DNA from: a virus
Taxonomy: Duplodnaviria > Heunggongvirae > Uroviricota > Caudoviricetes
Strand: one strand, 5' to 3'
Length of the DNA: 64,000 nucleotides
IMG/VR virus record: IMGVR_UViG_3300022555_000011
Coordinates: 19,381 to 83,380 of that record
In this document: positions 1,148 through 45,170 of the stretch, one piece after another
How positions within the stretch are numbered: the stretch's first letter is position 1
Layout of the letters: each line of letters begins with the position of its first letter
Position numbers and translations under genes: made by a program
The notes under the pieces: model-generated
Told to the model about the DNA's origin: nothing
Seen by the model: the letters and a program-made list of their open reading frames with translations, nothing else
Databases searched by the model: none

Positions 1148-1182
1148 TTTATTTATTTTATATATACTATAAAATAAATAAA
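1148..1182 (+). promoter_or_regulatory. hairpin with TATATA late-type promoter upstream of LAGLIDADG gene
   Basis: 14-bp inverted repeat tttatttattttat/ataaaataaataaa overlapping tatatatac. Confidence 0.55.
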
Positions 1183-1193
1183 TAATTGAGGCT

Positions 1194-2123
1194 ATGTTAA
1201 GGAAAAAATGGACAGAAGAAGAAGTCGAAAAGTTAAAAAATTCATATCTAAATATGAGTACAAAAGAATTGTCTTTATTTTTAGATAGGACTGAGATTTC
1301 TATTATTGGCAAAATGCAGTTATTGGGTATAAATAGAATGTGGACTAAAAATGAAGATGATATATTAAGAGAGAATTATGGAATAAACAATTATGAGGAT
1401 TATAAATATTTATTACCAAATAGAACATTAAGTTCTCTATTTAATAGAGCACAAGTTTTAAAAATAAAATGTAAAGAAAAAATTAGAAATAATTATAAAT
1501 ATGATGTAAATCATCATTTTTTTAAGGATTTGTCCAATATAAATTGCTATTGGGCTGGATTTATTGCTGCTGATGGTTGGATAAAATCTGATTGTAATTG
1601 CTTAGGTGTAAAATTGGCAAAAAAAGATATAAAACATTTAGAGAAATTTAAATTCGATATTCAATCTAATTCACCTATAAGAGAAAAAAAAGCAAAAATT
1701 GATGAAAAGATTTTTTTACAAAGTGAAATAAATGTTTACTCCAGATATATTGTGCACGATTTATATGATAATTTTAATATAACTCCTAATAAAACTTTTA
1801 CTTTAATACCACCAAATATTGAAAACTTTGAACATAAAATTTCATATATAGTTGGTCTAATTGATGGTGATGGCACGATAGGAAAAAAAACTAATGCAAC
1901 TGATTTGAGAATTTCTTTAGCTGGCAATGAAGAAATTATAAAATGGTGTAAGTCTGTGTTAGTGGATCTTCTTAAATTAAGAAAATCAAAAAAAATTGCG
2001 TATAGTAATAAAATTTATAGCTTTAGTTTAGGTAATAAAAACTCTATAAAATTTATCAATTATGCAAAAAAATTAAATATACCTCATATGGAGAGGAAAT
2101 GGAATAGATATGGATTACAATAA
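1194..2123 (+). CDS. LAGLIDADG homing endonuclease with N-terminal WTEEE repeats
   Basis: YWAGFIAADG and YIVGLIDGDG motifs. Confidence 0.85.
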   Translation: MLRKKWTEEEVEKLKNSYLNMSTKELSLFLDRTEISIIGKMQLLGINRMWTKNEDDILRENYGINNYEDYKYLLPNRTLSSLFNRAQVLKIKCKEKIRNNYKYDVNHHFFKDLSNINCYWAGFIAADGWIKSDCNCLGVKLAKKDIKHLEKFKFDIQSNSPIREKKAKIDEKIFLQSEINVYSRYIVHDLYDNFNITPNKTFTLIPPNIENFEHKISYIVGLIDGDGTIGKKTNATDLRISLAGNEEIIKWCKSVLVDLLKLRKSKKIAYSNKIYSFSLGNKNSIKFINYAKKLNIPHMERKWNRYGLQ

Positions 2124-3132
2124 AGATTATTATAAAATTTTAGAAATTGATAAAAATTCATCTTATGATGAATTGAAAAAACAATATAGAAGTTTATCTA
2201 AATTATATCATCCAGATGTTATGAAGACTGGTGATGAGTTTAAATTCAAAGAAATTAATAACGCATTTGAAGTTTTATCAGATGCTAAAACCAGACAAGA
2301 GTATGATCAACGTAGTCCACATGGAAATTCCTATTCGCCAGGATTTGGTGGATTTCCAGGATTTGAATTTCATTTTAATCAAGGAGGTGGTGATATTCAC
2401 GATATATTTAGCCAATTTTTTGGAGGCGCAAACCCATTTGGAGGCGGATTTAACCCATTTGGTCAAAGAGAACAGTTTAGAGAAGATTTAGATATTAATG
2501 CTATTATAACAATAAATCTAAAACAGATATATTTAAATGAACAATTAAATATAAAATATAAGCGTAAAGTTCATTGCGATAGTTGTAATGGTACAGGCTT
2601 TGATAAAGAGAGTCATTCTGATATGTGCGAAATTTGTAATGGAAGTGGAGTAGATAAAGGAAAAGTTTGTGAGTATTGTAGAGGTGAAGGTAAGATTTAT
2701 GCTGAAACTTGTAAAAAATGTAAAGGTGAAAAGGTGATGTTAATTGATTCAGAAGTTAATTTGGCAAACATTTCTCAATTAAGAGAAAATATACAGAATT
2801 TACATAGAGGTTATGGTCACCAATCAAAATATTATAGAGAAAAGATTGGGAGTTTAATTTTGAATATTAATGTTGATAGGAGTGATGGTTATGAAATATT
2901 GAATGGTTATCAATTGAGGAAAGTATTGGATATTCATTTTCAAGATGCTATTGATGGTTCTGAATTGACACATATTCATGTTGATGGTAATGAAATTAAA
3001 ATTAAATTGCCAGCCAAAACAAAAAATGATGAGGTTTTAAGAATTAGAGAAAAAGGTTTATTAAGACAAGATAATACAAGAGATGATTTATATCTAAAGA
3101 TTAATATAATAATTGATTATAGTAGAATTTAA
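2110..3132 (+). CDS. dnaJ: DnaJ chaperone
   Basis: J domain with HPD, G/F-rich region, four CxxCxGxG-type repeats, C-terminal domain. Confidence 0.92.
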   Translation: MDYNKDYYKILEIDKNSSYDELKKQYRSLSKLYHPDVMKTGDEFKFKEINNAFEVLSDAKTRQEYDQRSPHGNSYSPGFGGFPGFEFHFNQGGGDIHDIFSQFFGGANPFGGGFNPFGQREQFREDLDINAIITINLKQIYLNEQLNIKYKRKVHCDSCNGTGFDKESHSDMCEICNGSGVDKGKVCEYCRGEGKIYAETCKKCKGEKVMLIDSEVNLANISQLRENIQNLHRGYGHQSKYYREKIGSLILNINVDRSDGYEILNGYQLRKVLDIHFQDAIDGSELTHIHVDGNEIKIKLPAKTKNDEVLRIREKGLLRQDNTRDDLYLKINIIIDYSRI

Positions 3133-3395
3133 AAATCTTCAAGACTTTTAACTAAGTCATTTAATTCTAAATTTAGTGTATTTACATATAATTCTAATAT
3201 ATCTGTTGAAAATACAACAGTTGCAATTTCACCTTCATTTAATTGAATTTCACCAACACCTACAACACCAGGTTCAAATCCTTTTATTGTGAATGATCTT
3301 TTGTTTGTTAATTTTTGTACATCAAAAATGGTTTTTTCAAGTTTAGTAATTTTGTCAACGATATTAGCGACAAGAAGTGCATTATCTCTATTCAT
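3129..3395 (-). CDS. hypothetical protein
   Basis: 88-aa ORF preceded by a TATATA motif on the minus strand. Confidence 0.6.
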   Translation of the reverse strand: MNRDNALLVANIVDKITKLEKTIFDVQKLTNKRSFTIKGFEPGVVGVGEIQLNEGEIATVVFSTDILELYVNTLNLELNDLVKSLEDF

Positions 3396-3435
3396 AATAT
3401 TTTTTTATTTTATATATTTAAAAAATAGAGTCTCA

Positions 3436-4149
3436 TCAAATAAATCTCCAGTTGATATAATCTAACGCTTGATAGACTTGTAACATTTTATTCCAATCTT
3501 TGCTTTTTGTTACAACTTGAAATACAAAATCCTTGAATTCTTTTAATCCTTTACTTTCAAATTCTTTTGTCATTTTTTTGCGATTTTCATATGATATTGG
3601 TGTATCTGTAGATTGACCTAATTGTTTTGCCTTGTCAGTTTTTAGATATAATACATATTCTGTACCTTCTCTCATATAATCATTTGCAACTTCTAATGCT
3701 TTATCAAAGGCTTTTTCCCAGTCTGGATTAGTCTTAATAAGATTTATAAAATGTCTTTTTGATTTTAAATCAAAAAAATTTGCTAACTGTTGTTCAGAAA
3801 AATTGTTTTCTTTTGATATTTTAACAAAATTTATAAGATCACTTGGTTTTTTTATTTGATTTATACTTTTATCTTCTACAATTTCTGATTTTGTATTTGA
3901 ATCTAATGGAGGAGGTGTCTGACCTTTTGTCATTCCGCCTAATGTAGCTGCTGTCATTAAGGCTCCAGCTGCAAGATTTTTCTTCCAATCTTCATATAAT
4001 CTAATCTTTGAAAGATTGTTTTCTTCAAAATTTTGTAAATCAATTTTATACTTTTGATCTTTATCTTCTTCATCATCAAAATTATCATAAAATTGAGCTG
4101 TGAAGTTATCAATTTCTTCTGATTCGTTGAATTTTTTTAAGTGTTTCAT
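3436..4149 (-). CDS. leader-bearing protein with internal hydrophobic segment
   Basis: MKHLKKFNES leader; KKNLAAGALMTAATLGGM segment. Confidence 0.65.
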   Translation of the reverse strand: MKHLKKFNESEEIDNFTAQFYDNFDDEEDKDQKYKIDLQNFEENNLSKIRLYEDWKKNLAAGALMTAATLGGMTKGQTPPPLDSNTKSEIVEDKSINQIKKPSDLINFVKISKENNFSEQQLANFFDLKSKRHFINLIKTNPDWEKAFDKALEVANDYMREGTEYVLYLKTDKAKQLGQSTDTPISYENRKKMTKEFESKGLKEFKDFVFQVVTKSKDWNKMLQVYQALDYINWRFI

Positions 4150-5869: not shown

Positions 5870-5893
5870 TTTTAAATTATTCTTTGTTATTTT

Positions 5894-9688: not shown

Positions 9689-9699
9689 AATATTATGTA

Positions 9700-10365
9700 T
9701 TAATAGTAAATCTTTTTCAAAAATTCATTGTGGTGTGTGAAGGCTAAATCCATTTTGACTGCTCTGTTTAATAGAACCCATTTTCCATTTTTAGCATCGT
9801 CCCCAAATTTTAGTTCTGCTGAATTATTCATATGAAAAATAAATGGATAAGCAAAGAAATTTATTTCTCTTGGATCATTAGTTTTGAATACTCCAAGTGG
9901 CTCTATTCTTTTTATATCATCTAATTTTGCTAATGTTTCTTCTTGCAATTCTCTTTTAGCCGCGTGTTCTGGAGTTTCACCAGCATCAATAAAACCACCA
10001 GGAATAGCCCAACCACGACCATCTGATCTTTCAATTAGATAAACACGACCATCTCTAAATGGAATGGCATCAGCAGCAAAATTAGCAGCATAAATTATTC
10101 TATCACCATCTAATTCAAAATATTTTGTGACTGATTGTTGGTGACCACCAGAATTGACAAAATTTGCGAATTTGTCATCAATTAGTGTTATTTTACCAGC
10201 ATCTTCTTTTGGTAAAAAAAGTGTTCTACCATCTGCTGTAGTATAAAGCCAGTTTCCATTTTCATCCTTATTGATGCCAGTAATAGTGACCAATTTGGTT
10301 AGGTCAAAATTTGAGAGATTTTCTTTCATTAGAAATTTGTTATATTGTTTAAATTTTATTATCAT
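9700..10365 (-). CDS. Nudix hydrolase (ADP-ribose pyrophosphatase-like) with leader
   Basis: Nudix box GGFIDAGETPEHAAKRELQEET; starts MIIKFKQYNKFLMKEN. Confidence 0.88.
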   Translation of the reverse strand: MIIKFKQYNKFLMKENLSNFDLTKLVTITGINKDENGNWLYTTADGRTLFLPKEDAGKITLIDDKFANFVNSGGHQQSVTKYFELDGDRIIYAANFAADAIPFRDGRVYLIERSDGRGWAIPGGFIDAGETPEHAAKRELQEETLAKLDDIKRIEPLGVFKTNDPREINFFAYPFIFHMNNSAELKFGDDAKNGKWVLLNRAVKMDLAFTHHNEFLKKIYY

Positions 10366-10393: not shown

Positions 10394-10427
10394 ATAATTA
10401 TTTTCTTATATATAAGAAAATAATTAT
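10394..10427. repeat. perfect 34-bp palindrome centred on TATATA
   Basis: ataattattttcttata|tataagaaaataattat between divergent Nudix and tnpB genes. Confidence 0.85.
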
Positions 10428-10498
10428 AAAAATAGAAAAATATGACTTTATTTTATTTATATATACATTATACAATAATAAAAAAATAGTATAATAAA

Positions 10499-11689
10499 TT
10501 GAAGATAATTAAATATACATATAAATTTAGGTTAGAACCAACACAAGAACAGGAAATTCTATTAAATAAGCATTTTGGCTCTGTTAGATACGTATATAAT
10601 TATTTTTTGAATCAAAGAAAAGAAGAATACTTAAATAATAAAAAATCAATAACTTATAATCAACAATCAAGTTTTCTAACTCAATTAAAGAAAGATGAAG
10701 AGACAAATTGGCTCAGTGAAATAAATAGTCAGACGTTACAGTATTCTCTTAAATGTTTAGACCAAGCATATCAAAATTTTTTTAACAAAAGAACTCAATT
10801 CCCAAAATTTAAATCAAAGAAAAATAAAAATTCATTTACTTCTCCACAATACGTTAGAGTTAAAAATAATAAATTATTAATTAGAAAATTTAATGAAGGA
10901 ATTGAAATGATAATGGAAAGAAAAATTAAAGGAACAATTAAACATTGTGTTGTAAGCAAAACTACTACTGGAAAATATTTTGTTTCAATTTTAACAGAAC
11001 AAGAATATAAACCAATTCAAAAAACAAATAAATCAGTAGGCATAGATTTAGGAATAAAAGACTTTTTAGTGTTATCTGATGGAACGAAAATCAAGAATCA
11101 CAGATTTCTGAAACATTACGAAGGAATATTAACATTAAATCAAAAGCATCTATCAAGGAAAACAAAAGGATCAAATCGTTATGAAAAACAAAGATTAAAA
11201 GTTGCTAGAATTCATGAAAAAATAACTAATTCTAGAATGGATTTAATTCACAAAACAACTAATAAACTAATTCGTGATTTTGATATAATTTATTTGGAAG
11301 ACTTAAATATTAAAGGAATGATGAAAAATCATAAACTATCAAAAGCAATTAGTGATGTTAGTTGGGGTATATTTATTAATATAATAGAATACAAAGCAGT
11401 ATGGAACGATAAACAAGTTATTCATATTGATAGATTTTTTCCTTCATCCAAAGCCTGTTCTAAATGTGGTTGGATTAACAATAATTTAACTTTAAAAGAT
11501 AGAACTTGGGCTTGTAAGTGTGGTTCTGTTCATGATAGAGATATAAATGCTGCAATAAATATTCTTAACGAAGGATATCGTAAAAATATATCAGATGGAA
11601 CGTCTGATTATGAGCGTGGAGCAAAAATAAGACCAGTTTCGACTGGCGCAAGCAACGAAACGCTTAAAAAGAAGGAACTTGTTTCCTGA
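10499..11689 (+). CDS. tnpB: IS200/IS605-family RNA-guided endonuclease TnpB
   Basis: N-terminal YKFRLEPT HTH; RuvC motifs GIDLG, LEDL, RDINAAINI; zinc finger; no tnpA nearby. Confidence 0.92.
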   Translation: MKIIKYTYKFRLEPTQEQEILLNKHFGSVRYVYNYFLNQRKEEYLNNKKSITYNQQSSFLTQLKKDEETNWLSEINSQTLQYSLKCLDQAYQNFFNKRTQFPKFKSKKNKNSFTSPQYVRVKNNKLLIRKFNEGIEMIMERKIKGTIKHCVVSKTTTGKYFVSILTEQEYKPIQKTNKSVGIDLGIKDFLVLSDGTKIKNHRFLKHYEGILTLNQKHLSRKTKGSNRYEKQRLKVARIHEKITNSRMDLIHKTTNKLIRDFDIIYLEDLNIKGMMKNHKLSKAISDVSWGIFINIIEYKAVWNDKQVIHIDRFFPSSKACSKCGWINNNLTLKDRTWACKCGSVHDRDINAAINILNEGYRKNISDGTSDYERGAKIRPVSTGASNETLKKKELVS

Positions 11690-14537: not shown

Positions 14538-14589
14538 ATTACTTATATATTAATTTAAACAATCAAAAAATTATTTGATATATATAATA

Positions 14590-15708
14590 ATGGATAAGAA
14601 GAGTATAATAGATTTATCAAATAAGATTCATAATTTTTATTATGATTATGCCAAAGTTGAGGATTCTGGTAAAATGAATAAAATAAAAATTATATGTCCT
14701 ATTCATGGTGAATTTGAACAGAGATTGGATGTTCACCTTAAAGGATCTGGATGCATAAAATGTGGAATAAATAGTAGAAAAAATAATATATTTGAGTTAA
14801 TAAGTAAATTTAATGTAGTACACAACAATAAATATGATTATTCTTTGACTTACTATGTTAATAATAAAAGTAAAATAAAAATTATATGTCCTATTCATGG
14901 TGAATTTGAGCAATCTACATCAAAACATTTATTCGGCTCTGGTTGCAAAAAATGCTCAGTGGATAATTCTAAAAAAAATAGAACTAAATCGAAAGATCAA
15001 TTTATAAAAGAATCAAACAAAAGGCATAATAATAAATATGATTATAGTCTGGTTAATTATGAAAACAATTATAAAAAAATTAAAATTATTTGTCCTGATC
15101 ATGGTGTTTTTGAACAAATTCCAAATAATCATTTATCTGGATCAGGTTGTTTTAAATGTTTTCATATTTATATTAATAATTTTAATACTTTAGATATATT
15201 AGAAATTTTTGATAATTTTAATAATGTACATGGTGATAAATATGATTATTCTTTGGTAGATTATGTGAATGGTGATATAAAAATTAAAATTATCTGCGAG
15301 GTTCATGGTATATTCGAGCAGACCCCAAATAGTCATAAAAATGGTTCTGGCTGTCCTCATTGTGCTAATATAAAAAATAGGTTAAAATATATTGATATTT
15401 TGAAAAGTAGATTTGAATCCAATATACAAATAACTCCAAATTTTAATAAATCTGCTTGTGCCATATTTGATAATATTATGAAAGATAATAATTCATATAT
15501 TCAACACGCTATGAATGATGGTGAATTTTTTATTAAGGAATTAGGATATTGGTTGGATGGTTATGATAAAGTTAATAATATTGTATATGAATTTGACGAA
15601 AAATATCACTTTAAAAAAGGAGTATTATCACCAAAAGATATAATACGACAGATGGAAATAGAAAATTTATTAAAATGCAATTTTATCAGAATAAAAAATA
15701 ATAATTAA
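14590..15708 (+). CDS. zinc-ribbon-repeat (DUF723-like) homing endonuclease
   Basis: Four KYDYS...IICPxHGxFEQ...HxxGSGCxxC repeats; C-terminal LDGYD...EFDEKYH; ATG at 14590 follows TATATA. Confidence 0.75.
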   Translation: MDKKSIIDLSNKIHNFYYDYAKVEDSGKMNKIKIICPIHGEFEQRLDVHLKGSGCIKCGINSRKNNIFELISKFNVVHNNKYDYSLTYYVNNKSKIKIICPIHGEFEQSTSKHLFGSGCKKCSVDNSKKNRTKSKDQFIKESNKRHNNKYDYSLVNYENNYKKIKIICPDHGVFEQIPNNHLSGSGCFKCFHIYINNFNTLDILEIFDNFNNVHGDKYDYSLVDYVNGDIKIKIICEVHGIFEQTPNSHKNGSGCPHCANIKNRLKYIDILKSRFESNIQITPNFNKSACAIFDNIMKDNNSYIQHAMNDGEFFIKELGYWLDGYDKVNNIVYEFDEKYHFKKGVLSPKDIIRQMEIENLLKCNFIRIKNNN

Positions 15709-17099: not shown

Positions 17100-17147
17100 A
17101 CTCATAATATTTTTATATATAGAACAAAAGAATAATTAATTATGAGT
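17100..17147 (+). promoter_or_regulatory. start-codon-sequestering hairpin with TATATATAG in the loop
   Basis: actcataat (17100-17108) pairs with attATGagt (17139-17147). Confidence 0.55.
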
Positions 17148-18122
17148 TTTTATGATATTGAACATTGGATAAAAAAAGGTTTGAGTGAAAATGATGCTAA
17201 GGAAAAAATAAAAGAAATAAAAGAGAAAAATAATAGATTTCGTGTTGAATTTTGGTTAAGGAAAGGATTTACTGAGATTGAATCTAAAGAAAAAATAAGT
17301 GAGATACAAAAAAATAATGCGTCAAAGGTTAATCATAAAACAAAGCCTCAAACAACTAGAATAGATTATTGGATAAGTAAAGGTTATTCTCTTGAAGAAT
17401 CTAAAATAAAATTAAAAGAGAGACAAACTACATTTACATTAGATAAATGTATATTTAAATATGGAGAAATAGAAGGACAAAAAATATTTAGAAATAGGCA
17501 AGAAAAATGGCAAGAGACTTTAAATAAAAATAATGATAAAATTGAACTTAATAAAAAACGTGGTCTATCCAAAGAAAAGTTTATTGAAAAGCATGGTCTA
17601 GAGATGTTTAATAAGAGTGTTGAATTAAAAAAATTTGGAAGTAGTAAAGAAGGTTTGATAGAAAATTATGGTTTAGATTTTTATAATAAGAGAATAAATA
17701 AAACAAAAATTGTATTAAAAAACAGAGGATTTAATAAATATTCAAAAATATCATTAGAATTGTTTTTAGAAATAGAAAAAAATATAGATTTAGATTGTTT
17801 TTACGGTAAAAATGAAAAAATAATACAATTTTATGCTGATGAAAAATATTTTTGCTTCTATGCTGACTTTATGTGTGAAAATAAAATTATAGAATTTTAT
17901 GGTGATTATTTTCATGGTAATCCAGAGGTGTATAATAAAGATAAAATAATTGGTAGTAAATATAAACATTTTTCTGCTGAAGATGCTTGGAAAAAAGATT
18001 CTGATAGAATAAACTTAATTAAAAATCAAGGATATGATATATTAATAATATGGGAAAATGATTATAAAAAAGATAAAGAAAAAATAAAAAATAAATGTGT
18101 AGAATGGATAAAAAATTTATAA
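17142..18122 (+). CDS. free-standing Vsr/PD-(D/E)XK-like endonuclease inside the fractured AAA gene
   Basis: W-x-x-KG-x-x-E-x-E-x-KEK repeats; ADFMCENKIIEFYGDYFH...IWENDY C-terminus. Confidence 0.75.
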   Translation: MSFYDIEHWIKKGLSENDAKEKIKEIKEKNNRFRVEFWLRKGFTEIESKEKISEIQKNNASKVNHKTKPQTTRIDYWISKGYSLEESKIKLKERQTTFTLDKCIFKYGEIEGQKIFRNRQEKWQETLNKNNDKIELNKKRGLSKEKFIEKHGLEMFNKSVELKKFGSSKEGLIENYGLDFYNKRINKTKIVLKNRGFNKYSKISLELFLEIEKNIDLDCFYGKNEKIIQFYADEKYFCFYADFMCENKIIEFYGDYFHGNPEVYNKDKIIGSKYKHFSAEDAWKKDSDRINLIKNQGYDILIIWENDYKKDKEKIKNKCVEWIKNL

Positions 18123-20895: not shown

Positions 20896-20991
20896 AGTTT
20901 TTTATTTTTATATAAAATATTTTAATATTTGTTTAAAAATAGAAAAATACGACTTTATTTTATTTATATATACTATAAAAAAGAAATAAAA

Positions 20992-23121: not shown

Positions 23122-23171
23122 AAAATGACTTTTTGTTTTTAATATATAGTATAAAAACAAAAAGTCATTTT
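23122..23171 (+). promoter_or_regulatory. 20-bp perfect hairpin ending at the ATG, with ATATATAG in the loop
   Basis: aaaatgactttttgttttta / taaaaacaaaaagtcatttt; loop atatatagta. Confidence 0.75.
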
Positions 23172-24035
23172 ATGAAACATTACACAGAAGAAGAAATAGA
23201 ATTTTTAAAAATAAATTATCCAAAATTTGGTGGTTCTTATTGTTCTTTAGAACTTAATAAAACAAAAAATTCTATTTTAGCAAAAACAAAAAGACTTAAT
23301 ATATATCTAAATGATGATATTAAAAGTGAAATTAAAAGAAATAATTCTTTAGGTTGGTATAATAAAATAGATAATGATTCATATAATGTCGGATATGAAC
23401 AATTTAAAAATATAAATACTCCAGAAATTGCGTATATTTTAGGTTTAATTTGGACTGATGGTGATTGTCATAAAAATAAATATCACAATGATATTAGAGT
23501 TGAGATTATAAAAAAAGATTTAGACGAAATTAGATACATTTTTGATAAAGTTGGAAAGTGGGGATATTATAATAGAAAAAGGAAAAATAAAAAAGAAAGC
23601 GCAATTTTAAAAACCTCTAACAGGCCATTATTAGATTATTTATATTCGGTTGATTTTAATAAAAAATCGTTTGCCAGTCCTGATAAAATTTTAGATAGAA
23701 TACCATCAAAATTAAAAATGTATTTTTTTAGAGGAATTATAGATGGCGATGGCTGTTTTTATAATGGCAAAGGTCTTAAATTGTTTTCTGTAACAAGTTC
23801 AATAGAACAAGATTGGAAATATTTGGAAGATTTATTTAATTCATTAAATATTGAATATAAAATAAGAAAAAAAGAACATAAAAATAAAACTGGAAATATT
23901 TCACATTCTTCATTAATTGAAGTTATTGGTATTAATCGTATAATAAAAATTGGAAATTATATTTATAATGGTTTTGATTTGGATAAAATAGGATTAAAAA
24001 GGAAATATGATAAATATTTGTCAATTAAAAATTAA
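23172..24035 (+). CDS. LAGLIDADG homing endonuclease
   Basis: YILGLIWTDG and FFRGIIDGDG; ATG at 23172 (MKHYTEEE). Confidence 0.85.
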   Translation: MKHYTEEEIEFLKINYPKFGGSYCSLELNKTKNSILAKTKRLNIYLNDDIKSEIKRNNSLGWYNKIDNDSYNVGYEQFKNINTPEIAYILGLIWTDGDCHKNKYHNDIRVEIIKKDLDEIRYIFDKVGKWGYYNRKRKNKKESAILKTSNRPLLDYLYSVDFNKKSFASPDKILDRIPSKLKMYFFRGIIDGDGCFYNGKGLKLFSVTSSIEQDWKYLEDLFNSLNIEYKIRKKEHKNKTGNISHSSLIEVIGINRIIKIGNYIYNGFDLDKIGLKRKYDKYLSIKN

Positions 24036-30821: not shown

Positions 30822-32756
30822 TTAAAATCCTCTAGCCATTTGTCTTTGAATATATGAACTATTATTTGAGTTTGCAATATGTCTAGCAGCATATGCTGCT
30901 GTTTCTGCTGGACTAAATGTTGTATCTGCTGTTGTTGTTGCATTTTGTGCCGCATTTTTATTCCCCATAAGTTGTGCACTTTGATTAGAAAAAACCGAAC
31001 CACCTTTAGGCTCCATTGATTGAATATTTTCTGAAGCTTTTTTATTTACCTCTGGTATTGAATTTACTGTTTCTGTGCCAGGAGGAGGTGTATTATAAGT
31101 TCTTCTAAATGTATTATTAAACATTCTCATTAATTCTTGTTTACCTAAAGGTCTTGAAAATCTACAACCAAATGTAGCTTTTAATCTTTGTGGTTGATCA
31201 TTAAATCCCATTTCATTACTAGTTTCTATGCTACAAGTACTTACAATTATATGATTTGATGCAAACCAAGGTGAATATGGATTACCTAAAGTTAAATACC
31301 AAGGTGTTGAACTTATTTTACCACCAACCATTAATTCTAAAGATCCTCTTAATTTAAATCTGTTTATAGATAGTGTGCTTGTTAAAATAGATTGTAAAAA
31401 TGGTGCAATAAAATCTATTGCACCATCAATTTTCTGTTTTGCTCCATTAAAAACAGATTCTGTTTTAGAACTTGTGCCATCTTGATAAAATTTGTCTAAT
31501 GCGGCTTGTTTTGATTCTTTTTCTTCAGGTTTAGCATTTTCTACTTCTTTTTTTAATCTAGTTTCTTCTGCAGTTCTATCTTTATTTGACTGTTCTGTTT
31601 TAGCAGAATCATTTTTTGCTTTTTCCAAATTTTCCTTCATTTTTTGATAAGTGTCCGTAAAGAATTTTGTTATTACTTCCCAAAATCCAACTAAGATTTT
31701 AGCTACCATATCCCACCATGCATTCAGATTATTACCTTTACCACTTGATGCATCTCTGGCACTTTTTATTATAGGTGAATTGTCGCCCCAATAAAATACC
31801 ATATTTGATGTTCCCATTGTCATAAGATTATCCATTATATCTAACATTGCTGAGCCAGGATCAACATCTCCCAATAATTTTTGTTCATAATTTGTTTCTA
31901 ATTCAAAAGTAAAATCTGAAGTAAGGTTCTGACTTTCTGGATCTCTCCATGGACCTTGAAGTAAAAGATTAGGATTTCCAACTGGTATATTATTAAGACC
32001 CCAAGAATTAGATGTTGTTGCGCCATTTGCGCCTTTATCGGTATTTGTTAAACTATTAGAAGTTGGATGTAAAAATGCATTTGGATCAAAATTTTCATAT
32101 GTTTCATCTGTAGTTTCATCCACTCCACTTTTATCTAATAAGTGTGCTCTATTATAAAGTTCAAATAACATACCTTGTGCAAAATCTGGTATTGGAACTA
32201 ATGCTGTGCCTTCTGCTCCACCCATAGCTTTTTTAATAATATCATTTAATACTTGATCAAATCTTCTATCAATTGTTGTCCAAGTTTCACTAAAATTAAT
32301 TTTACCAAAGTTATCAGTAGGTTTAATCCAACCAATTACAGTTGAAATTGGCTCAATTTTCATTTCATTTAAGTCTTCTAACACGAAACAACCTTCTGGA
32401 AATCTTCTGAGAATAGCCATTCTGTTTATTGGGTAAACTCCTAATTCTCTTAGATATGCTAAATCTGCAGCGTTTATTCTTAACCCTGCGCCAGGATTTC
32501 CTTGAACTTTATCAAAATCCCTTATAAGCTGTATATATGGATTAATTGATATATTTTCATTTTTATAAACTGTTGTGTTAAGATATGATTTTATTTTATT
32601 TGTTCCTGAACCAGATCCATCTTTTGTTTTATATACAACATATTTAGAATTATCAAAAATGTTACGTTTGTTGTCAAAATTATCTAGTTGAGAATTTACA
32701 TCTTCTCTATTAGTAATATTACTAAATAAAAAATCCATTTCAGAATAATGTGCCAT
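30822..32756 (-). CDS. probable baseplate/tail structural protein
   Basis: First gene of the baseplate operon, TATATA upstream; WYLTLGNPYSP...FNDQP. Confidence 0.5.
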   Translation of the reverse strand: MAHYSEMDFLFSNITNREDVNSQLDNFDNKRNIFDNSKYVVYKTKDGSGSGTNKIKSYLNTTVYKNENISINPYIQLIRDFDKVQGNPGAGLRINAADLAYLRELGVYPINRMAILRRFPEGCFVLEDLNEMKIEPISTVIGWIKPTDNFGKINFSETWTTIDRRFDQVLNDIIKKAMGGAEGTALVPIPDFAQGMLFELYNRAHLLDKSGVDETTDETYENFDPNAFLHPTSNSLTNTDKGANGATTSNSWGLNNIPVGNPNLLLQGPWRDPESQNLTSDFTFELETNYEQKLLGDVDPGSAMLDIMDNLMTMGTSNMVFYWGDNSPIIKSARDASSGKGNNLNAWWDMVAKILVGFWEVITKFFTDTYQKMKENLEKAKNDSAKTEQSNKDRTAEETRLKKEVENAKPEEKESKQAALDKFYQDGTSSKTESVFNGAKQKIDGAIDFIAPFLQSILTSTLSINRFKLRGSLELMVGGKISSTPWYLTLGNPYSPWFASNHIIVSTCSIETSNEMGFNDQPQRLKATFGCRFSRPLGKQELMRMFNNTFRRTYNTPPPGTETVNSIPEVNKKASENIQSMEPKGGSVFSNQSAQLMGNKNAAQNATTTADTTFSPAETAAYAARHIANSNNSSYIQRQMARGF

Positions 32757-32814
32757 ATTTAATTTATATAGTTTTACTTTATATATAAAAAAAATATTCC
32801 TCTGAAATAGAATT

Positions 32815-33216
32815 TTAGTAGTCTCTAATTATTTGAATGGCATCAAATAGTGATATATTAGATAGAAGATTTTCATACATTTTTTGATTGTCTTTGAAAT
32901 CTTCAAAAAAGAAGAGTAGATTGAAATTAATTTTACCAATTAAATTTTCTTTAATTTGAAAAATATCATCAATTTCTAATGTATTTATTTTATTTAAGTT
33001 TGGTATATAGTACACGTCTTTATTTTTCCTAATTGTTTGAGTTATTTTCGTATAAATTATAAGATTGAAATATTCTCGCCATTCAGTCACATCTTCTAGA
33101 CCATGATCATCTAATTGCTGTTTTATATCTATAATTGTCTTATTTCGTACCTTGTTTATCTTAATATATTTGTCCAATTTTTTTCTATTTTTAACGAAAA
33201 CTATGTAAAATTCCAT
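32815..33216 (-). CDS. hypothetical protein
   Basis: 133-aa ORF with TATATA upstream. Confidence 0.6.
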   Translation of the reverse strand: MEFYIVFVKNRKKLDKYIKINKVRNKTIIDIKQQLDDHGLEDVTEWREYFNLIIYTKITQTIRKNKDVYYIPNLNKINTLEIDDIFQIKENLIGKINFNLLFFFEDFKDNQKMYENLLSNISLFDAIQIIRDY

Positions 33217-36099: not shown

Positions 36100-37329
36100 A
36101 TGGAATTAATAGAAAAAATTAAAAATAGTAAAAGTATGTCTGGCATCATTAGAATGATTAATGGTGATGATAAATTAAATGATATTGTTATAGATAGAAC
36201 AAAGTATTTAAATGATGCTTCTATACATGAAAGGTTATTTAATATAAAAAATGATTTTTTTGATAATACTGTTTGTTCCATATGTAATGTAAGTTTTTTA
36301 GAATGGAATGTTAAATATAATAAATATAAAAATACTTGTTCTCATAAAGAATGTAAAACAAAATTTTTGATGATAAATAAAGATCCAGAGTCAGAAAAAT
36401 TAAGAAGAGAAAAAATAAGCGAAACACAAAAAAATAAAACTGAAGAAGAAAAACAAATAATTTTAGACAAGATTAAAAAAACAAATATTAAAAAATTTGG
36501 TAAAGATTCTTATGCAAAAACACAAAAATTTAAAAATGATATGATTGATAAATATGGATATATTAGTGCATTTGAATTGAAAGAAACCCATGATAAGTCA
36601 AAATTAACTTTACTTAAAAAATATAATTGTGATCACAATTCTAAGATAGATGAAGTGAAAAATAATAAAAAAATTACATATTTAAATAATTATGGTGTTG
36701 ATAACCCCACAAAATCTATAGTTGTAAAAGATAAAATTATAAAAACAAATAATGAAAAGTATGGTGGCAACTCACCTATGAATAATGATGAAGTGAAAGA
36801 AAAAGCAAGAGAAACATATCAATCAAATTATATTGATAATGAATTAAAAATGAATGAGTTGGTTTCCAGAAGAGAAGATACGATGTTTAAAAAGTATGGT
36901 GTTAATTATTGGATACAAGATAGTAAAAACTTAGATAAATTAGTTAAAAAAACAACTTATAAAAAATATCTTATACATGATAAAGAATATTTTTTGCAAG
37001 GATATGAAGATTGTGTTCTATTTGATATTTTATTAAAAAAGTATGATATTAATGATATTTGTATTTTTAATGATGATATAGAAAAATACACAGGTAAAAT
37101 ATATTATAGAGTTGAAAATAAAAAACACAAATATTATCCAGATTTTTATATAATAAGTGAGAATAAAATATATGAAGTTAAATCTGAATATACGTATAAT
37201 TCAGATATTATTATAAATACTCTAAAAAAAGATGCTTGCATTAATAACGGAATAGATTTTGAGTTTATTATATTGTCTAAAAAAGAATATAATAAATGGA
37301 AAAATAATAAAAATAATAAAAATATATGA
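36100..37329 (+). CDS. free-standing PD-(D/E)XK-type endonuclease inside fractured recA
   Basis: KYGVDNP-type repeats; C-terminal YYPDFYI...IYEVKS. Confidence 0.75.
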   Translation: MELIEKIKNSKSMSGIIRMINGDDKLNDIVIDRTKYLNDASIHERLFNIKNDFFDNTVCSICNVSFLEWNVKYNKYKNTCSHKECKTKFLMINKDPESEKLRREKISETQKNKTEEEKQIILDKIKKTNIKKFGKDSYAKTQKFKNDMIDKYGYISAFELKETHDKSKLTLLKKYNCDHNSKIDEVKNNKKITYLNNYGVDNPTKSIVVKDKIIKTNNEKYGGNSPMNNDEVKEKARETYQSNYIDNELKMNELVSRREDTMFKKYGVNYWIQDSKNLDKLVKKTTYKKYLIHDKEYFLQGYEDCVLFDILLKKYDINDICIFNDDIEKYTGKIYYRVENKKHKYYPDFYIISENKIYEVKSEYTYNSDIIINTLKKDACINNGIDFEFIILSKKEYNKWKNNKNNKNI

Positions 37330-40144: not shown

Positions 40145-41008
40145 ATGGCTTTTTTTAAGAGAGACGAAGCATACTACGCATCATTAAAATATTTTAAGGG
40201 AGATACTTTAGCATCTGATGTATGGGTTAATAAATATGCGTTAAAAGACACAAAAAGTGGCGAGACTGTTTATTACGAACGTACGCCAGATGATATGCAT
40301 TGGAGACTTGCAAGAGAAATACATAGGATAGAAGCTAAATACCAAAATCCTTTATCAGAACAATTTTTATTTGATTTGATGAAAGATTTTAAGTATATAA
40401 TTCCACAAGGCTCTCCAATGTCAGGTATTGGAAATAATAGACAAGTTGTATCATTATCAAATTGTTTTGTTATAGGTAATCCTTCTGATTCATATGGTTC
40501 AATTATGCAAGTTGATGAAGAACAAATTCAACTTATGAAACGTAGAGGTGGTGTTGGACATGACCTTTCTCATATTAGACCTGCTGGAATGCCAGTTAAA
40601 AATTCAGCATTAACTTCAACAGGACTTGTACCTTTTATGAATAGATATTCTAATTCTACAAATGAAGTGGCTCAAGGTGGTAGGCGAGGCGCATTAATGT
40701 TAACTTGTTTTTCGCCTGATACATTTGTTCTTACAGATTATGGATGGGATCAAATAAAGAATGTTATAAATAAAATAAAATCTGGAATTGAAATTAAATC
40801 TTGGACACATGATGGGTTTAAGAATATTTTAGATATTCAAGAATTTAAAAATAGAGATGTTTATGAAATAGAATGTGAAAATGATAAGATCATAATTGTT
40901 ACTCCAGATCATGAATTTGTTGTAAGAAATATGAATTCAGGTGAGGAATATTTGAAGGCTATAATTGACGTAGATGTATTAATAGAAGAATTAATATTTT
41001 ATTTTTAA
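40145..41008 (+). CDS. nrdJ: class II ribonucleotide reductase N-terminal fragment + split-intein N part (100 aa, 40706-41005)
   Basis: SLSNCF, GGVGHDLS.IRP, RRGALMLT then CFSPDTFV...TPDH. Confidence 0.9.
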   Translation: MAFFKRDEAYYASLKYFKGDTLASDVWVNKYALKDTKSGETVYYERTPDDMHWRLAREIHRIEAKYQNPLSEQFLFDLMKDFKYIIPQGSPMSGIGNNRQVVSLSNCFVIGNPSDSYGSIMQVDEEQIQLMKRRGGVGHDLSHIRPAGMPVKNSALTSTGLVPFMNRYSNSTNEVAQGGRRGALMLTCFSPDTFVLTDYGWDQIKNVINKIKSGIEIKSWTHDGFKNILDIQEFKNRDVYEIECENDKIIIVTPDHEFVVRNMNSGEEYLKAIIDVDVLIEELIFYF

Positions 41009-41078
41009 TTTTATTTTCATTTTTCCAGTTTTTTTATTTTATATATACAAATAAAACATCCAGATGAAAATAAAATTA
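41006..41078 (+). promoter_or_regulatory. 15-bp hairpin sequestering the endonuclease ATG, TATATATAC between the arms
   Basis: taattttattttcat (41006-41020) pairs with ATGaaaataaaatta (41064-41078). Confidence 0.7.
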
Positions 41079-42053
41079 TTAAAAATTGAGGAGGACAGAA
41101 GAAGAATATTGTATAAAATAGATCAAGAAGAGTACATCATTAATGGTAAGATATTTAAAGTAAAAAAAAGCACTGCTAATCTTAGTAGTTATTTAAATTC
41201 TATTGATAGTTCATTAATTAAAATTTTAAATTTATCAGTAGATTGTAAATGTAAAAATTGTTTAGAGTATATTACTAGAAATAGATTTGAAAGAAATGTT
41301 TTTATTGCATATAAATTTTGCAATGAGTGTGATAAAAGAAATGTTTTGAATAAATATAATATTGTTAAGTGTATATGTTGTAATAAAGAAATTTTATATA
41401 AAGATATTAAATATTCTACTTGTGGAAATAAAAAATGTTTAGAAGAATATAGAAATATTATAAATAATAAAATAAAAGAAACACATTGGACTTTAAATGA
41501 TCACAAAAATGATATAACGATTAAAAAATCTATAAAAAGAAAAGAAAATGATATTAAATTTTGTAGAAAATATGTGGCTTGGAATAAAGATAAAACTGGA
41601 ATATATTCTAAAGAGACAATTGAAAAATTAAGAAATGCTGCCATTAATCAAATGAAAAATGGTAAAATTAAAAAAACAGGAATTGAGACAATTTTTGAAG
41701 AATTATTAAAATCTAATAATATTGATTATACATACTCGTTTATATATGAAAATAGGCAATTTGATTTTATTATAAAAGATTATAATATTGTTGTTGAAAT
41801 TCAGGGGGATTACTGGCATTCTAATCCTAAATTTTGGGATGTTTATGATAATGATAAAACAAAAAAGAAATTGTATGAGACTCAGATAATGAAAATAAAA
41901 GATGATGTAATTAAAAAGAATATTATAGAAAGATCAAAATATGATTTTGTTTCATTTTGGGAATATGATATTCATAATAATATTTCAGAAGTTGAAAAAA
42001 CTTTATTTGAATTAATTAATAAAAATAAAATTAAAAATGGAAAAAACTTATAG
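41064..42053 (+). CDS. free-standing Vsr/DUF559-like endonuclease inside fractured nrdJ
   Basis: Zn-ribbon N-terminus; IETIFEELL...FDFII...EIQGDYWH...FWEYDI. Confidence 0.78.
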   Translation: MKIKLLKIEEDRRRILYKIDQEEYIINGKIFKVKKSTANLSSYLNSIDSSLIKILNLSVDCKCKNCLEYITRNRFERNVFIAYKFCNECDKRNVLNKYNIVKCICCNKEILYKDIKYSTCGNKKCLEEYRNIINNKIKETHWTLNDHKNDITIKKSIKRKENDIKFCRKYVAWNKDKTGIYSKETIEKLRNAAINQMKNGKIKKTGIETIFEELLKSNNIDYTYSFIYENRQFDFIIKDYNIVVEIQGDYWHSNPKFWDVYDNDKTKKKLYETQIMKIKDDVIKKNIIERSKYDFVSFWEYDIHNNISEVEKTLFELINKNKIKNGKNL

Positions 42054-45000
42054 TAAAATACGTAAAATAACAAAAAAAGGTAAAAGTGATGTATATGATT
42101 TTACGGTGGAAGACACACATAGAATATTGGCAAATAATTTTTATACTTCAAATTGCTCCGTAAAACATCCAGATTCTGAAAGTTTTATTGATGCAAAATT
42201 AGAAGATGGTAAAGTAACTGGTGCAAATATTTCAGTTAAAATTGCAGATGACTTTATGGAAGCCGCATTAAATGCTAAAATGTACACACAATTATTTCCA
42301 ATAGATTCAAAAAATCCTATTCATACTAAAGAAATTGATGCTCAAAAATTGTGGAAGAAAATTATTCATAATGCCTGGAAATCTGCGGAGCCAGGTGTTT
42401 TATTTTGGGATACAGTAATGAGAGAATCTGTGCCAGATTGTTATCAAGATTATGGCTTTACAACAATTTCAACAAATCCTTGCATTATTGGTGATTCTTT
42501 AATTGCTGTTGCTGATGGTAGAAATGCAGTTTCTATAAGACAATTAACAGAAGAAGGTAAAGATATTCCAGTATATAGTACAAATAGTGAAGGTAAAATT
42601 GAAATAAAATGGGGTAGAAATCCTAGATTGACTGGAAAAAATAAAGAAGTATGGAAATTAACTTTAGATGATGATTCTGTTTTTGTCGCAACCCCAGATC
42701 ATAGAGTTTATTTGAATAATAATACATATAAAGAATTAAAAGATTTGTTACCAGGTGAATCAATATCATCTTTTTATTCTTTTAATTCTAATAAGGGATA
42801 TAGACAAATTGCACAAACTGGTGATAAAATGATCGGAGGTAGATATAGAAATAGAAGACAGTATAGACTTATTCATGAGTTTCATAAAGGTAAAGACATT
42901 GATTATAAATTGTTTAATATACATCATAAAGATTTCGATAATCAAAATGATATGATAGATAATTTAGAATTGATGACGAGAGATGATCATAAATTTTTAC
43001 ATTCTGGAAGAATTAAAGGTAAAAATAATCCATATTTTAGAATGACTGATGAATGGAAAGCTAATTTTGCTTCACATCCAGGAGAAAAGAATTCTAAATA
43101 TATTAATGTTTCTAATGATGAAATGATAATTCATGGTAGAGAATTATTTAAACAGGAAGGAAAATTTACAGCACGAGGATGGATTAAGTATTCAAAAGAA
43201 CATAATTTGCCACAATCATTATGGAACGAATTTAGATTTAAGACATTTGCAGATTTTAAAAACCAAGTAGTAAATAATCATAAAGTTGTGAGTGTTGAAT
43301 TTTTTGGATATGATGATGTATATAATATTACAGTTGATGATAATCACAATTATAATGTTATTACAAAAACTGAGGATGATAGATATATAACATCAGGTGG
43401 AATTTGCGTAAAAAATTGTGGAGAAATAACTCTTTGTCCTTATGATTCTTGTAGATTATTGGCTATAAACCTTTATAGTTTTGTAGATGAACCTTTTACA
43501 AAAAATGCAAAATTTAATTGGGATAAATTCAAGGAATATGTTGTTTATGCTGAAAGGATTATGGATGATATTATTGATCTTGAGATAGAAAAAATTAATA
43601 TGATCTTGGATAAAATTGCATCAGATCCAGAAAATGAAGAAACTAAAAGAGTTGAAAGAGAAACTTGGATTAAGATTATGAATATGACTTTAAATGGTCG
43701 TAGAACTGGTTTGGGTGTAACTGCTGAAGGTGATATGTTAGCTGCTCTTGGCTTAAGATATGGTACACCAGATGCAACAGATTTTTCAACAGAAGTTCAT
43801 AAAGTATTGGCGATAAATGCTTATAAATCATCTGCAATTATGGCAAAAGAACGTGGCTCATTCCCTATTTATGATTATGAAAGAGAAGTTAGTAATCCTT
43901 TTGTTCAAAGATTAAAAGATGCTGATCCAGAATTAGATATGATGTTAAAACAATATGGTAGAAGAAATATTGCACTTTTGACTATTGCACCAACAGGAAC
44001 AGTTTCACTAATGACACAAACAACTTCAGGTATCGAACCTGCATACTTGGTTTCTTATAGAAGAAGAAGAAAGATTAATCCTACTGATAAAGGTGGTAGA
44101 GTTGATTTTATAGATGCAGAAGGTGTAAAATGGGAAGAATATAATGTCTTTCATCATAAGTTTGAAGTTTGGTTAGAGGTTAACGGTTATAATATTGATG
44201 AAGTAAAAGCAATGAAAGATTCTGAATTAAAATTAATTATTGAAAAATCTCCATACTATAAAGCAACTTCTAATGATGTTGACTGGGTTGAAAAGGTTAG
44301 AATGCAAGGTATGATTCAAAAATATGTTGACCATTCTATTTCAGTAACAGTTAACTTGCCTAATAATGTAACTGAAGAAATTGTTTCTAAAGTATATGAA
44401 ATGGGCTGGAAGTCTGGATGTAAAGGTATGACAGTTTATCGTGATGGTTCTCGTCAAGGAGTTATTATGTCAAATGAAGGAACAACTCAAAATGTTGTTA
44501 AAGAAGTACAAGAGAACAACGCAAAACCAAGACCAAAAAGACTTGAATGTGAAGTTGTTAGATTTACTAATAATAAAGAAAAATGGGTTGGTGTTCTTGG
44601 ATTGATGGTTGATGAAAAAGGTCAAAAATATCCTTATGAGATATTCACTGGATTACTTGATGAATTTTATATTCCTCCTAGTATTGAAAAAGGTGAAATT
44701 ATTAAGCATAAAGAAGATGGTGAAAAAAGTAGATATGATTTTGTTTACAAGGACAAAGATGGTTATAATGTTACAATGGAAGGCTTAAATAGAGCTTTTA
44801 ACAGAGAATTTTGGAACACAAGTAAACTATTGTCAGCATTTTTAAGACATAGAATACACCTTCCTAGTGTGATTAATCTTATTGATAGTTTACAAATGAA
44901 TTTAGATAATGAAGCAGCTTTTGGTACTTGGAAATCTGGTGTGAAAAGAATTATTAAGAAATATATAAATTCTATCGTTGTTGGCGAATCTTGTCCAGAA

Positions 45001-45084
45001 TGTGGAGCTACAGGACATGATTTAGTGTATGAAAATGGCTGTAAGACTTGTAAGGCGTGCGGTTGGGCGAAATGTTCAGATTAA
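42037..45084 (+). CDS. nrdJ: split-intein C part (39 aa) + class II RNR C-terminal fragment containing a second intein
   Basis: VYDFTVEDTHRILANNFYTSN|CSVKHPD; NP|intein|CGE; RRTGLG, IAPTGT; C-terminal Zn ribbon. Confidence 0.92.
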   Translation: MEKTYSKIRKITKKGKSDVYDFTVEDTHRILANNFYTSNCSVKHPDSESFIDAKLEDGKVTGANISVKIADDFMEAALNAKMYTQLFPIDSKNPIHTKEIDAQKLWKKIIHNAWKSAEPGVLFWDTVMRESVPDCYQDYGFTTISTNPCIIGDSLIAVADGRNAVSIRQLTEEGKDIPVYSTNSEGKIEIKWGRNPRLTGKNKEVWKLTLDDDSVFVATPDHRVYLNNNTYKELKDLLPGESISSFYSFNSNKGYRQIAQTGDKMIGGRYRNRRQYRLIHEFHKGKDIDYKLFNIHHKDFDNQNDMIDNLELMTRDDHKFLHSGRIKGKNNPYFRMTDEWKANFASHPGEKNSKYINVSNDEMIIHGRELFKQEGKFTARGWIKYSKEHNLPQSLWNEFRFKTFADFKNQVVNNHKVVSVEFFGYDDVYNITVDDNHNYNVITKTEDDRYITSGGICVKNCGEITLCPYDSCRLLAINLYSFVDEPFTKNAKFNWDKFKEYVVYAERIMDDIIDLEIEKINMILDKIASDPENEETKRVERETWIKIMNMTLNGRRTGLGVTAEGDMLAALGLRYGTPDATDFSTEVHKVLAINAYKSSAIMAKERGSFPIYDYEREVSNPFVQRLKDADPELDMMLKQYGRRNIALLTIAPTGTVSLMTQTTSGIEPAYLVSYRRRRKINPTDKGGRVDFIDAEGVKWEEYNVFHHKFEVWLEVNGYNIDEVKAMKDSELKLIIEKSPYYKATSNDVDWVEKVRMQGMIQKYVDHSISVTVNLPNNVTEEIVSKVYEMGWKSGCKGMTVYRDGSRQGVIMSNEGTTQNVVKEVQENNAKPRPKRLECEVVRFTNNKEKWVGVLGLMVDEKGQKYPYEIFTGLLDEFYIPPSIEKGEIIKHKEDGEKSRYDFVYKDKDGYNVTMEGLNRAFNREFWNTSKLLSAFLRHRIHLPSVINLIDSLQMNLDNEAAFGTWKSGVKRIIKKYINSIVVGESCPECGATGHDLVYENGCKTCKACGWAKCSD
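42481..43416 (+). mobile_element. contiguous intein (312 aa) with HNH endonuclease at the RNR catalytic NP|CGE site
   Basis: Starts CIIGDSLI; TPDH; IHHKDFDNQNDMIDNL; ends VYNITVDDNHN...CVKN|C. Confidence 0.9.
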
Positions 45085-45091
45085 TTAAAAA

Positions 45092-45170
45092 TAAACCACA
45101 TATTTCACATTTAAGACAACCATATTTTTATATATAGAATATGAGAAAAAAATGTGAAATATGTGGTTTA
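45092..45170 (+). promoter_or_regulatory. 21-bp perfect hairpin spanning the promoter and start of the endonuclease gene
   Basis: taaaccacatatttcacattt (45092-45112) pairs with aaatgtgaaatatgtggttta (45150-45170); tatatatag at 45129. Confidence 0.75.

Follow-up and report, generated by a model that had tools for sequence, protein, structure and literature searches.

Conserved hairpins around a promoter-like box at the starts of homing endonuclease genes in an uncultured huge phage

Can homing endonuclease genes that lie behind other phage genes carry, at their own start, a hairpin that would silence them on read-through RNA and leave RNA from their own promoter free to be translated? In phage T4, the genes for I-TevI (in the td intron), I-TevII, I-TevIII and segB are preceded by a hairpin that sequesters the ribosome-binding site, and the transcripts from a late or middle promoter do not contain its 5′ arm (Edgell, Gibb and Belfort 2010, PMC2988022). 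The question is raised here by a 64,000-nucleotide (nt) stretch of viral DNA, bases 19381-83380 of the 147,380-base-pair (bp) IMG/VR record IMGVR_UViG_3300022555_000011, referred to below as the window. An original prediction for this DNA placed a recurrent hairpin-plus-late-promoter switch in front of homing endonuclease genes at six inverted repeats, here called sites 1 to 6 (starting at 1148, 17100, 23122, 41006, 45092 and 60617, respectively). All six repeats are exactly where they had been placed, and an ATATATA box lies between the arms at 6 of 6 sites. Two of them, sites 3 and 5, are real hairpins under selection, with arm sequences that are unrelated between their gene families, and a third family with such a hairpin lies outside the window; at sites 1, 2, 4 and 6 the case for a recurrent switch is weak.

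A repeat search independently recovered four of the six sites, namely site 1 (1148-1162/1168-1182, 15 nt, 100%), site 3 (23122-23141/23152-23171, 20 nt, 100%), site 4 (40999-41020/41064-41085, 22 nt, 86%, with a perfect core at 41006-41020/41064-41078) and site 5 (45087-45112/45150-45175, 26 nt, 92%, with a perfect core at 45092-45112/45150-45170). The shorter repeats at site 2 (17100-17108/17139-17147, 9 nt) and site 6 (60617-60624/60664-60671, 8 nt) were confirmed by eye. Folding by RNAfold was compared with 200 dinucleotide shuffles, giving z scores of -2.48, -0.89, -7.75, -3.48, -8.50 and -1.24 for sites 1 to 6. Because a T-rich upstream region tends in any case to pair with an A-rich leader, a stricter null was also applied, with the two sides shuffled independently of each other; the arm-wise z scores were then -1.05, -1.19, -6.51, -1.97 (p 0.03), -7.82 and +0.26. 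Measured against shuffled controls, as the original prediction had proposed, sites 3 and 5 are far beyond chance, site 4 is marginal, and sites 1, 2 and 6 are indistinguishable from composition.

Site 5, which has the most negative z scores, lies at the 3′ end of a ribonucleotide reductase (RNR) gene and has the following parts:

45092-45112, plus strand: 5′ arm of the outer stem, intergenic, beginning 8 nt past the RNR stop codon at 45084; a perfect 21-nt repeat.
45115-45136, plus strand: promoter-like element GAC-N11-TATATATA in the loop, ending 4 nt before the ATG; TTGAC(A) in the homologues.
45121-45143, plus strand: inner stem (45121-45128 with 45136-45143), which pairs the AUG at 45141-45143 and has the TATATA box as its loop.
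45150-45170, plus strand: 3′ arm of the outer stem, formed by endonuclease codons 4-10 (K-C-E-I-C-G-L).
45141-46160, plus strand: DUF7487/phrog_3339 homing-endonuclease gene, 339 amino acids, inserted after the RNR gene.

The minimum free energy of this fold is -30.8 kcal/mol. The comparison drew on homologues of the gene from 13 further loci (36-79% identity), a count that includes exact duplicates and a few more distant sequences, and the alignment of the 5′ region comprises nine distinct sequences, the window among them (52-79% protein identity). All nine keep the 22-bp outer stem, the AUG-containing inner stem CCATATT/AATATGG and the TTGAC-N11-TATATATA element in the loop. Pairing holds in 93% of the alignment cells, compared with 36-58% when the partner column is slid, and there are six compensatory pairs, four in the outer helix and two in the inner helix, where loci L018, L020 and L025 also carry G.U variants. 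The covariation score of 0.157, against 0.099 in shuffles, was reached by none of 500 shuffled alignments. Where the coding arm has changed synonymously (AAA to AAG in L018; GGT to GGA in L020), the non-coding 5′ arm has changed to match, as it has for the replacements of E by K and of G by D. Changes confined to one arm leave a sense-strand G.U in six columns and C.A in one. In L025, 17 nt have been inserted into the loop and both arms are intact, which is consistent with a hairpin and not with a protein site of fixed spacing. Among the distant members, L023 has an AUG-sequestering stem of other sequence (z -3.97) and L002 a weaker one (z -1.83).

The gene family sits directly after the RNR gene in all homologous loci but L002, and at the same site in nine. 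When L018 is compared with window positions 42037-46160, the endonuclease is 72% identical and the adjoining RNR C-terminus merely 39%; in the alignments of sites 5 and 3 alike, sequence conservation begins at the 5′ arm. The hairpin and the promoter-like element therefore belong to the homing cassette. We take the contrast at L018 as evidence of movement of this cassette, hairpin and putative promoter included, between divergent phages by homing.

Site 3 differs in family and in layout, and consists of the following:

23122-23141, plus strand: 5′ arm, which is the TGAC box and T-rich spacer of a promoter-like element (TGAC-N11-AATATATA).
23142-23151, plus strand: loop with the ATATATA box; the predicted transcription start is a few nt downstream, at the first bases of the 3′ arm.
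23152-23171, plus strand: 3′ arm, made up of the entire A-rich leader and stopping 1 nt short of the AUG at 23172.
23172-24035, plus strand: LAGLIDADG-type endonuclease gene, 287 amino acids (LAGLIDADG_3, PF14528, E 8.5e-10; phrog_4645 'endonuclease').

This hairpin folds with a minimum free energy of -20 kcal/mol. The protein has 163 homologues, and the comparison of the leader covers seven homologous loci plus the window (eight loci, 52-83% identity) in three gene contexts: in five of the seven the gene upstream codes for a metallophosphatase, as in the window, in a sixth it is unrelated, and the seventh has only divergent genes upstream. The order TGACTTTTTGTTTTTA / ATATATA loop / TAAAAACAAAAAGTCA is kept in 7 of 7, ending 0-2 nt before the AUG. 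Here 95% of the cells are paired, with three compensatory pairs (U-A to C-G, in L032 and L033) and one U.G, and the covariation score of 0.071 (0.037 in shuffles) was reached by 7 of 500 shuffles. The arms are 8-10 nt apart across the loci, with pairing retained. Searching the 147-kb genome and 37 other loci with a covariance model of the hairpin yielded no additional copy, the single extra match, in L046, being an unrelated hairpin; the site 3 module is therefore not a shared portable leader here. Scans of viral contigs found no relatives of the gene at 23172 or of that at 36100. The L046 hairpin (430-530, minus strand) is an observation in its own right. It precedes an endonuclease of the KCEIC type and has a 15-bp stem containing G+C, a TATATT loop and a U-run 5 nt before the AUG; it is terminator-like, yet has the box-in-loop layout seen at the other sites.

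Outside the window, an unbiased screen of motif-bearing genes for a stem bracketing the box brought out a third family. A T5orf172/GIY-YIG-like gene (window-equivalent 112011-112328, minus strand) has a bracket with z -5.0, and its arms CCCATAATTATAAA/TTTATAATTATGGG, which include the AUG, are kept in four homologues of 58-84% identity, while loop and flanks drift. A member at 49% identity, which overlaps its upstream gene, has neither box nor stem. Across the genome, a bracketing stem at z < -2.8 was found in 7 of 64 genes with the box and in 1 of 126 without it (Fisher p 0.002), and the sole box-less gene, at 83759, is another endonuclease. Significant brackets occur in 4 of 17 endonuclease-like genes, compared with 4 of 173 others (Fisher p 0.0025); among the endonuclease-like genes screened, none was found at 36100, 62381, 21120, 50590 or 51393 or at the GIY-YIG gene at -4884.

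The families themselves are not quite those first named, which were LAGLIDADG and PD-(D/E)XK. LAGLIDADG, at site 3, is among the strong cases, and the genes at sites 1 and 3 both match phrog_4645 'endonuclease'; the two cases of PD-(D/E)XK type, sites 2 and 4, are among the weak hairpins, and their genes have sub-threshold Pfam matches only (MTES_1575 at site 2, Vsr at site 4). The other strong cases are T5orf172 and DUF7487; the genes at sites 5 and 6 and the gene at 36100 match DUF7487 together with phrog_3339 'homing endonuclease'. Nor is the design specific to endonuclease genes, since a structural gene (30822-32756, minus strand) has a stem of 12-15 bp around its promoter box (32730-32815), with the 3′ arm at +12 to +26 and a z of -2.8 in the screen of all genes and -4.1 against dinucleotide shuffles.

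The screen of motif-bearing genes also flagged two arrangements around the box at divergent genes. Both genes of the pair 64617/65002 (L005 617-1040, window-equivalent 64617-65040) begin with TTATAAAATGAAAAC, so placed that a 15-nt inverted repeat with copies about 60 nt apart surrounds their common TATATA box (z -5.0 and -3.3). A perfect 14+6+14 palindrome at 10395-10428, centred on TATATA, lies between a NUDIX gene (9700-10365, minus strand) and a TnpB gene; it reaches neither start codon and may be a bidirectional promoter or operator.

What is the box in the loop of these hairpins? In the window TATATATA occurs 18 times, where 8.5 are expected, and nearly all copies are intergenic. Genome-wide, ATATATA lies within 80 nt upstream of 64 of about 190 genes and within 45 nt of 61, with a consensus that runs from a T-run through ATATATA and a non-T base to an A-rich tract. 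In a subset of boxes (T)TGAC stands exactly 11 nt upstream, and the identical spacing is seen in related phages. From position and conservation, TTTT-ATATATA, in a subset with (T)TGAC-N11, appears to be a general promoter-like element of the phage. It precedes the genes for the tail sheath, a baseplate-module protein, the structural protein at 30822, NUDIX, Dam methylase, DeoC, TnpB and metallophosphatase as well as many endonuclease genes. The original prediction had called it a late promoter, which is not borne out: the box stands before 61-64 of about 190 genes of all classes, and the label 'late' therefore cannot be read from the sequence and was dropped. A scan for the sigma-70 consensus was uninformative in this 26% G+C DNA (71 sites, 63 expected), and a search of the literature found no phage promoter of the TATATATA type.

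The distance from the box to the ATG is bimodal genome-wide, at 3-8 nt (19 genes) and at 13-27 nt, so that a substantial class of the phage's mRNAs may be leaderless. Examples of close box-ATG pairs are given by position in the window:

45130-45143, plus strand: box and start codon at site 5.
62370-62383: close box-ATG pair.
50439-50453: close box-ATG pair.
14580-14592: close box-ATG pair.

The gene at 14590-15708 starts 3 nt past its ATATATA box. Together with the one at window-equivalent 71184-72092 it forms a pair of paralogues with DUF723 and zinc-ribbon matches, which may be additional endonuclease-like genes. A longer element of about 39 nt, AAAAATAGAAAAATATGACTTTATTTTATTTATATATAC, also recurs, in the window at 10444-10482, 20951-20989 and 23127-23150 and at window-equivalent 79876, 100783, 107394 and 114804 (minus strand). 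The genes that it precedes are those for TnpB/OrfB_IS605 (10499-11689 and, on the minus strand, the paralogue at 113589-114806) and a pair of small paralogues (20992, 107435), and it is also found ahead of the tRNA array. It may represent a class of promoter or else one end of a mobile element; a diverged copy forms the 5′ arm of hairpin 3.

The setting in which these leaders would act is one of translation that does not depend on Shine-Dalgarno (SD) sites. The record (27% G+C; CheckV completeness about 21%) carries genes for a tail sheath, a baseplate hub/lysozyme, DnaB and an RNR with intein-like inserts. A 10-kb piece had no Megablast match among GenBank phages, and relatives were found at the protein level only, among uncultured huge phages and Lak phages; for DnaB the nearest are uncultured phages of 0.46-0.74 Mb and Prevotella Lak phages. 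SD-like 4-mers are rarer upstream of the phage's genes than in the background (6.3% vs 10.6%), and the leaders are A-rich (53-68% A at positions -18 to -10); depletion and leaders together are consistent with SD-independent initiation of the Bacteroidota type, and the host of this huge AT-rich phage is probably a member of the Bacteroidota. The expectation that the switch would be adapted to SD-less translation is supported. The starts have no SD motifs and A-rich leaders, and the stem at site 3 covers the leader up to the AUG, as that at site 5 covers the AUG plus positions +10 to +30.

For the two endonuclease cassettes in the window (23172 and 45141) and for the T5orf172 gene, we think it likely on balance that the hairpin with the promoter-like box inside it gates translation initiation, and that RNA from the gene's own promoter escapes the gate. 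In this proposal, the 5′ arm would lie upstream of a -10-like box, or coincide with the upstream half of the promoter, and the 3′ arm would be the translation-initiation region, that is, the whole A-rich leader at site 3 and the AUG with codons 4-10 at site 5. Read-through RNA from the upstream operon (RNR for site 5, the metallophosphatase gene for site 3) would hold both arms and fold at about -20 to -31 kcal/mol, with ribosome access blocked. RNA from the cassette's own promoter would start inside the hairpin and leave out the 5′ arm, presenting an open A-rich leader at site 3 or a 5′-terminal AUG at site 5, where the box ends 4 nt before the ATG and the mRNA would thus be leaderless or nearly so. 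Because such RNA would escape the fold, translation of the endonuclease would depend on its own promoter and not on expression of the host gene. At both sites the initiation region is paired, the hairpin is under selection and the gene lies in the path of read-through, 59 nt (site 3) or 56 nt (site 5, after RNR) behind a co-directional gene with no separate terminator between. At site 5, the predicted accessibility of the AUG is 0.00 for the long RNA and 0.90 for the short one.

Several points weigh against this proposal. A rise in accessibility from long to short RNA is also predicted for many ordinary genes, so that folding alone does not single out endonuclease genes. About 13 of the 17 endonuclease-like genes of the genome have no significant bracket. 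In L034, a cassette of the site 3 type lacks a co-directional upstream gene, so that it does not lie in the path of obvious read-through, and the hairpin is nonetheless kept. The excess of G.U at site 5 could partly reflect a C-to-T mutation bias in an unconstrained 5′ arm; we treat it as weak evidence only, because such a bias, combined with the coding constraint on the 3′ arm, could yield the same pattern. The box is taken for a promoter on its position and conservation, and since an identical box precedes genes of every class, it does not by itself point to an early-to-late temporal switch.

At the four remaining sites a simpler account holds better, and we consider it quite probable. The repeats at sites 1, 2, 4 and 6, as distinct from those at 3 and 5, would be by-products of composition, arising where T-rich upstream sequence and A-rich leaders pair around the palindromic TATATATA:

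1148-1182, plus strand: site 1, a 15-bp palindrome of A/T only at the promoter box of the gene 1194-2123; significance uncertain.
17100-17147, plus strand: site 2, a 9-bp repeat, ACTCATAAT/ATTATGAGT, over the AUG of the gene 17142-18122; not above chance.
41006-41078, plus strand: site 4, a hairpin with arms 41006-41020/41064-41078, all A/U pairs bar one C-G; marginal.
60617-60671, plus strand: site 6, an 8-bp repeat near the start of the gene 60658-62241; not above chance.

The arm-wise z scores of these four, given above, fit this account, as does the fact that about half of the motif sites are T-rich on both strands and so near-palindromic; the shift in accessibility between long and short RNA is generic as well. 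The relatives point the same way at two sites. At site 4, where the ATATATA box at 41041 lies in the loop and the hairpin covers the AUG of a Vsr-like endonuclease gene (41064-42053), no equivalent bracket was found in relatives L009-L014 (34-55% identity). At site 6, a terminator (about 60583-60602) is followed by the promoter box, and relatives L039-L051 keep terminator and box, with no bracket seen. For site 1 no close relatives were found, those retrieved being too distant (34% identity); its stem stops 12 nt short of the AUG and is closely preceded by a strong terminator (about 1101-1127). Since sites 1 and 6 are just past strong terminators, little read-through is expected there, and their genes do not lie in its path. 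Against composition as the whole explanation stand the perfect 15-bp stem over the AUG at site 4, with its z of -3.48 against dinucleotide shuffles, the short CATAAT/ATTATG pairing at site 2, of which the single close relative, L037, keeps merely these 6 bp, and the fact that even weak A/U stems can still slow initiation. The four weak repeats may thus dampen translation weakly; we see no sign of selection on any of them. The gene behind site 6 is of interest apart from its repeat. It encodes a 527-amino-acid phrog_3339 'homing endonuclease' and follows the tail sheath gene in the window, and its relatives (39-63% identity) occur in 15 viral contigs, with a terminator and TATATA box upstream wherever the 5′ region was read, a module that looks unusually stable for a selfish gene.

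For the conserved hairpins at sites 3 and 5, an alternative to a gate on translation is that they act at the RNA level as insulators or processing sites, either as a weak terminator or attenuator or as an RNase III site, with the loop promoter restarting transcription. A duplex of 20-22 bp is a suitable length for an RNase III substrate, and both stems are of that length. In the window hairpin 3 ends in UUUU and hairpin 5 is followed by UUUAGAUUUUU, and the absence of a separate terminator between the upstream gene and the cassette at either site would fit such a role, as would the G+C-containing 15-bp hairpin and U-run that precede the KCEIC-type endonuclease of L046. However, the site 3 homologues L032, L033 and L034 have no U-tract after the stem, the terminator scan does not call site 5, and the loop of the outer stem there, 37 nt in the window and 54 nt in L025, is unlike that of intrinsic terminators; the combination of a short G+C-rich stem, a loop of 3-8 nt and a U-tract is found at neither hairpin. 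The inner stem at site 5, moreover, covaries specifically around the AUG, which points to initiation, and we regard a purely insulating or processing role as unlikely. A role at the DNA level, as an operator bound by a dimeric repressor or by the endonuclease (I-TevI binds an operator overlapping its own late promoter; PMC2988022) or as a cruciform around the promoter, is highly improbable, for while the arms flank or overlap the box and other boxes lie in palindromes short of a start codon, such as 10395-10428, the arm spacing varies with pairing kept (37 to 54 nt at site 5; 8-10 nt at site 3), arms of 20 nt and more far exceed protein half-sites, the one-sided changes at site 5 favour sense-strand G.U (six columns) over C.A (one), and the 3′ arm at site 5 lies within coding sequence and tracks synonymous changes.

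The translational gate, which we prefer for sites 3 and 5, has clear counterparts elsewhere. As with T4 I-TevI and segB, an endonuclease gene lies after or inside a host transcription unit, with a stable hairpin over its initiation region, a promoter or promoter-like box inside the hairpin and arm sequences unrelated between genes. Unlike those genes, the ones described here have no SD site to hide, and their stems cover the A-rich leader, the AUG or early codons; the box is TATATATA, with or without TGAC-N11, where T4 has TATAAATA; LAGLIDADG, DUF7487 and T5orf172 endonucleases take the place of the GIY-YIG and HNH families; and the host is probably of the Bacteroidota. According to work cited in PMC2988022 (Gibb and Edgell 2007 and 2009), mobE of Aeromonas phage Aeh1, between nrdA-a and nrdA-b, has a hairpin that hides the SD site and internal promoters, and its action was shown by mutation. 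Site 5, at the 3′ end of RNR, resembles mobE in being a free-standing endonuclease gene with a hairpin next to an RNR gene; it differs from what is described there in that the evidence here is comparative, where that for mobE comes from mutation and concerns an SD site.

Hairpins are also found upstream of 15 of 16 Vsr-like and GIY-YIG endonuclease open reading frames in the 'fractured genes' split by inteins (Dassa et al. 2009, PMC2677866); ten of these hairpins hold a T4-type late-promoter box, TATAAATA, and the 3′ end of the endonuclease gene overlaps the downstream gene. Site 4 is similar in that its gene is Vsr-like and overlaps the next gene by 17 nt. The box here, however, is TATATATA and not TATAAATA, and the well-supported sites 3 and 5 split no gene: neither lies between split-intein halves with TATAAATA in its 5′ hairpin. 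In T4 itself the design reaches beyond endonuclease genes, with hairpins that hide the ribosome-binding sites of the late genes e, soc, 39, 25 and 26 on early read-through transcripts (PMC2988022). The structural gene at 30822 (z -4.1) is the comparable case here, its 3′ arm at +12 to +26 lying, unlike theirs, away from any SD site. Recurrence across endonuclease families, which the original prediction had inferred, is already in print (PMC2988022, PMC2677866). The concept, described between 1988 and 2010, is known; the new elements are the phage lineage, its promoter box, the setting without SD sites and the families of endonuclease involved.

More tentatively, and with some doubt, huge phages of SD-less hosts may have made of this design a self-contained module, in which the promoter DNA itself (TGAC box plus spacer) would encode the arm that opposes the leader, as at site 3 and the T5orf172 gene, and in which the own transcript at site 5 would be leaderless, so that RNA starting at the AUG would be the sole form open to translation. 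If true, this would be a variant of the T4 switch without any ribosome-binding site, initiating at a 5′-terminal AUG or an A-rich leader, and the module could pass between phages with as little as 39% identity in the flanking genes.

The idea that a promoter within a hairpin lets selfish endonucleases restrict and uncouple their expression is unchanged by these observations. They extend the classic T4 design to an uncultured lineage of huge phages, probably of Bacteroidota, that do without SD sites, and to families not earlier tied to promoter-in-hairpin control, namely LAGLIDADG, DUF7487 and T5orf172. They also provide a candidate promoter consensus for such phages, TGAC-N11-TATATATA or TTTT-ATATATA. 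Finally, the two leaders backed by covariation, at sites 3 and 5, could become test cases for structural control of translation initiation without a Shine-Dalgarno site.

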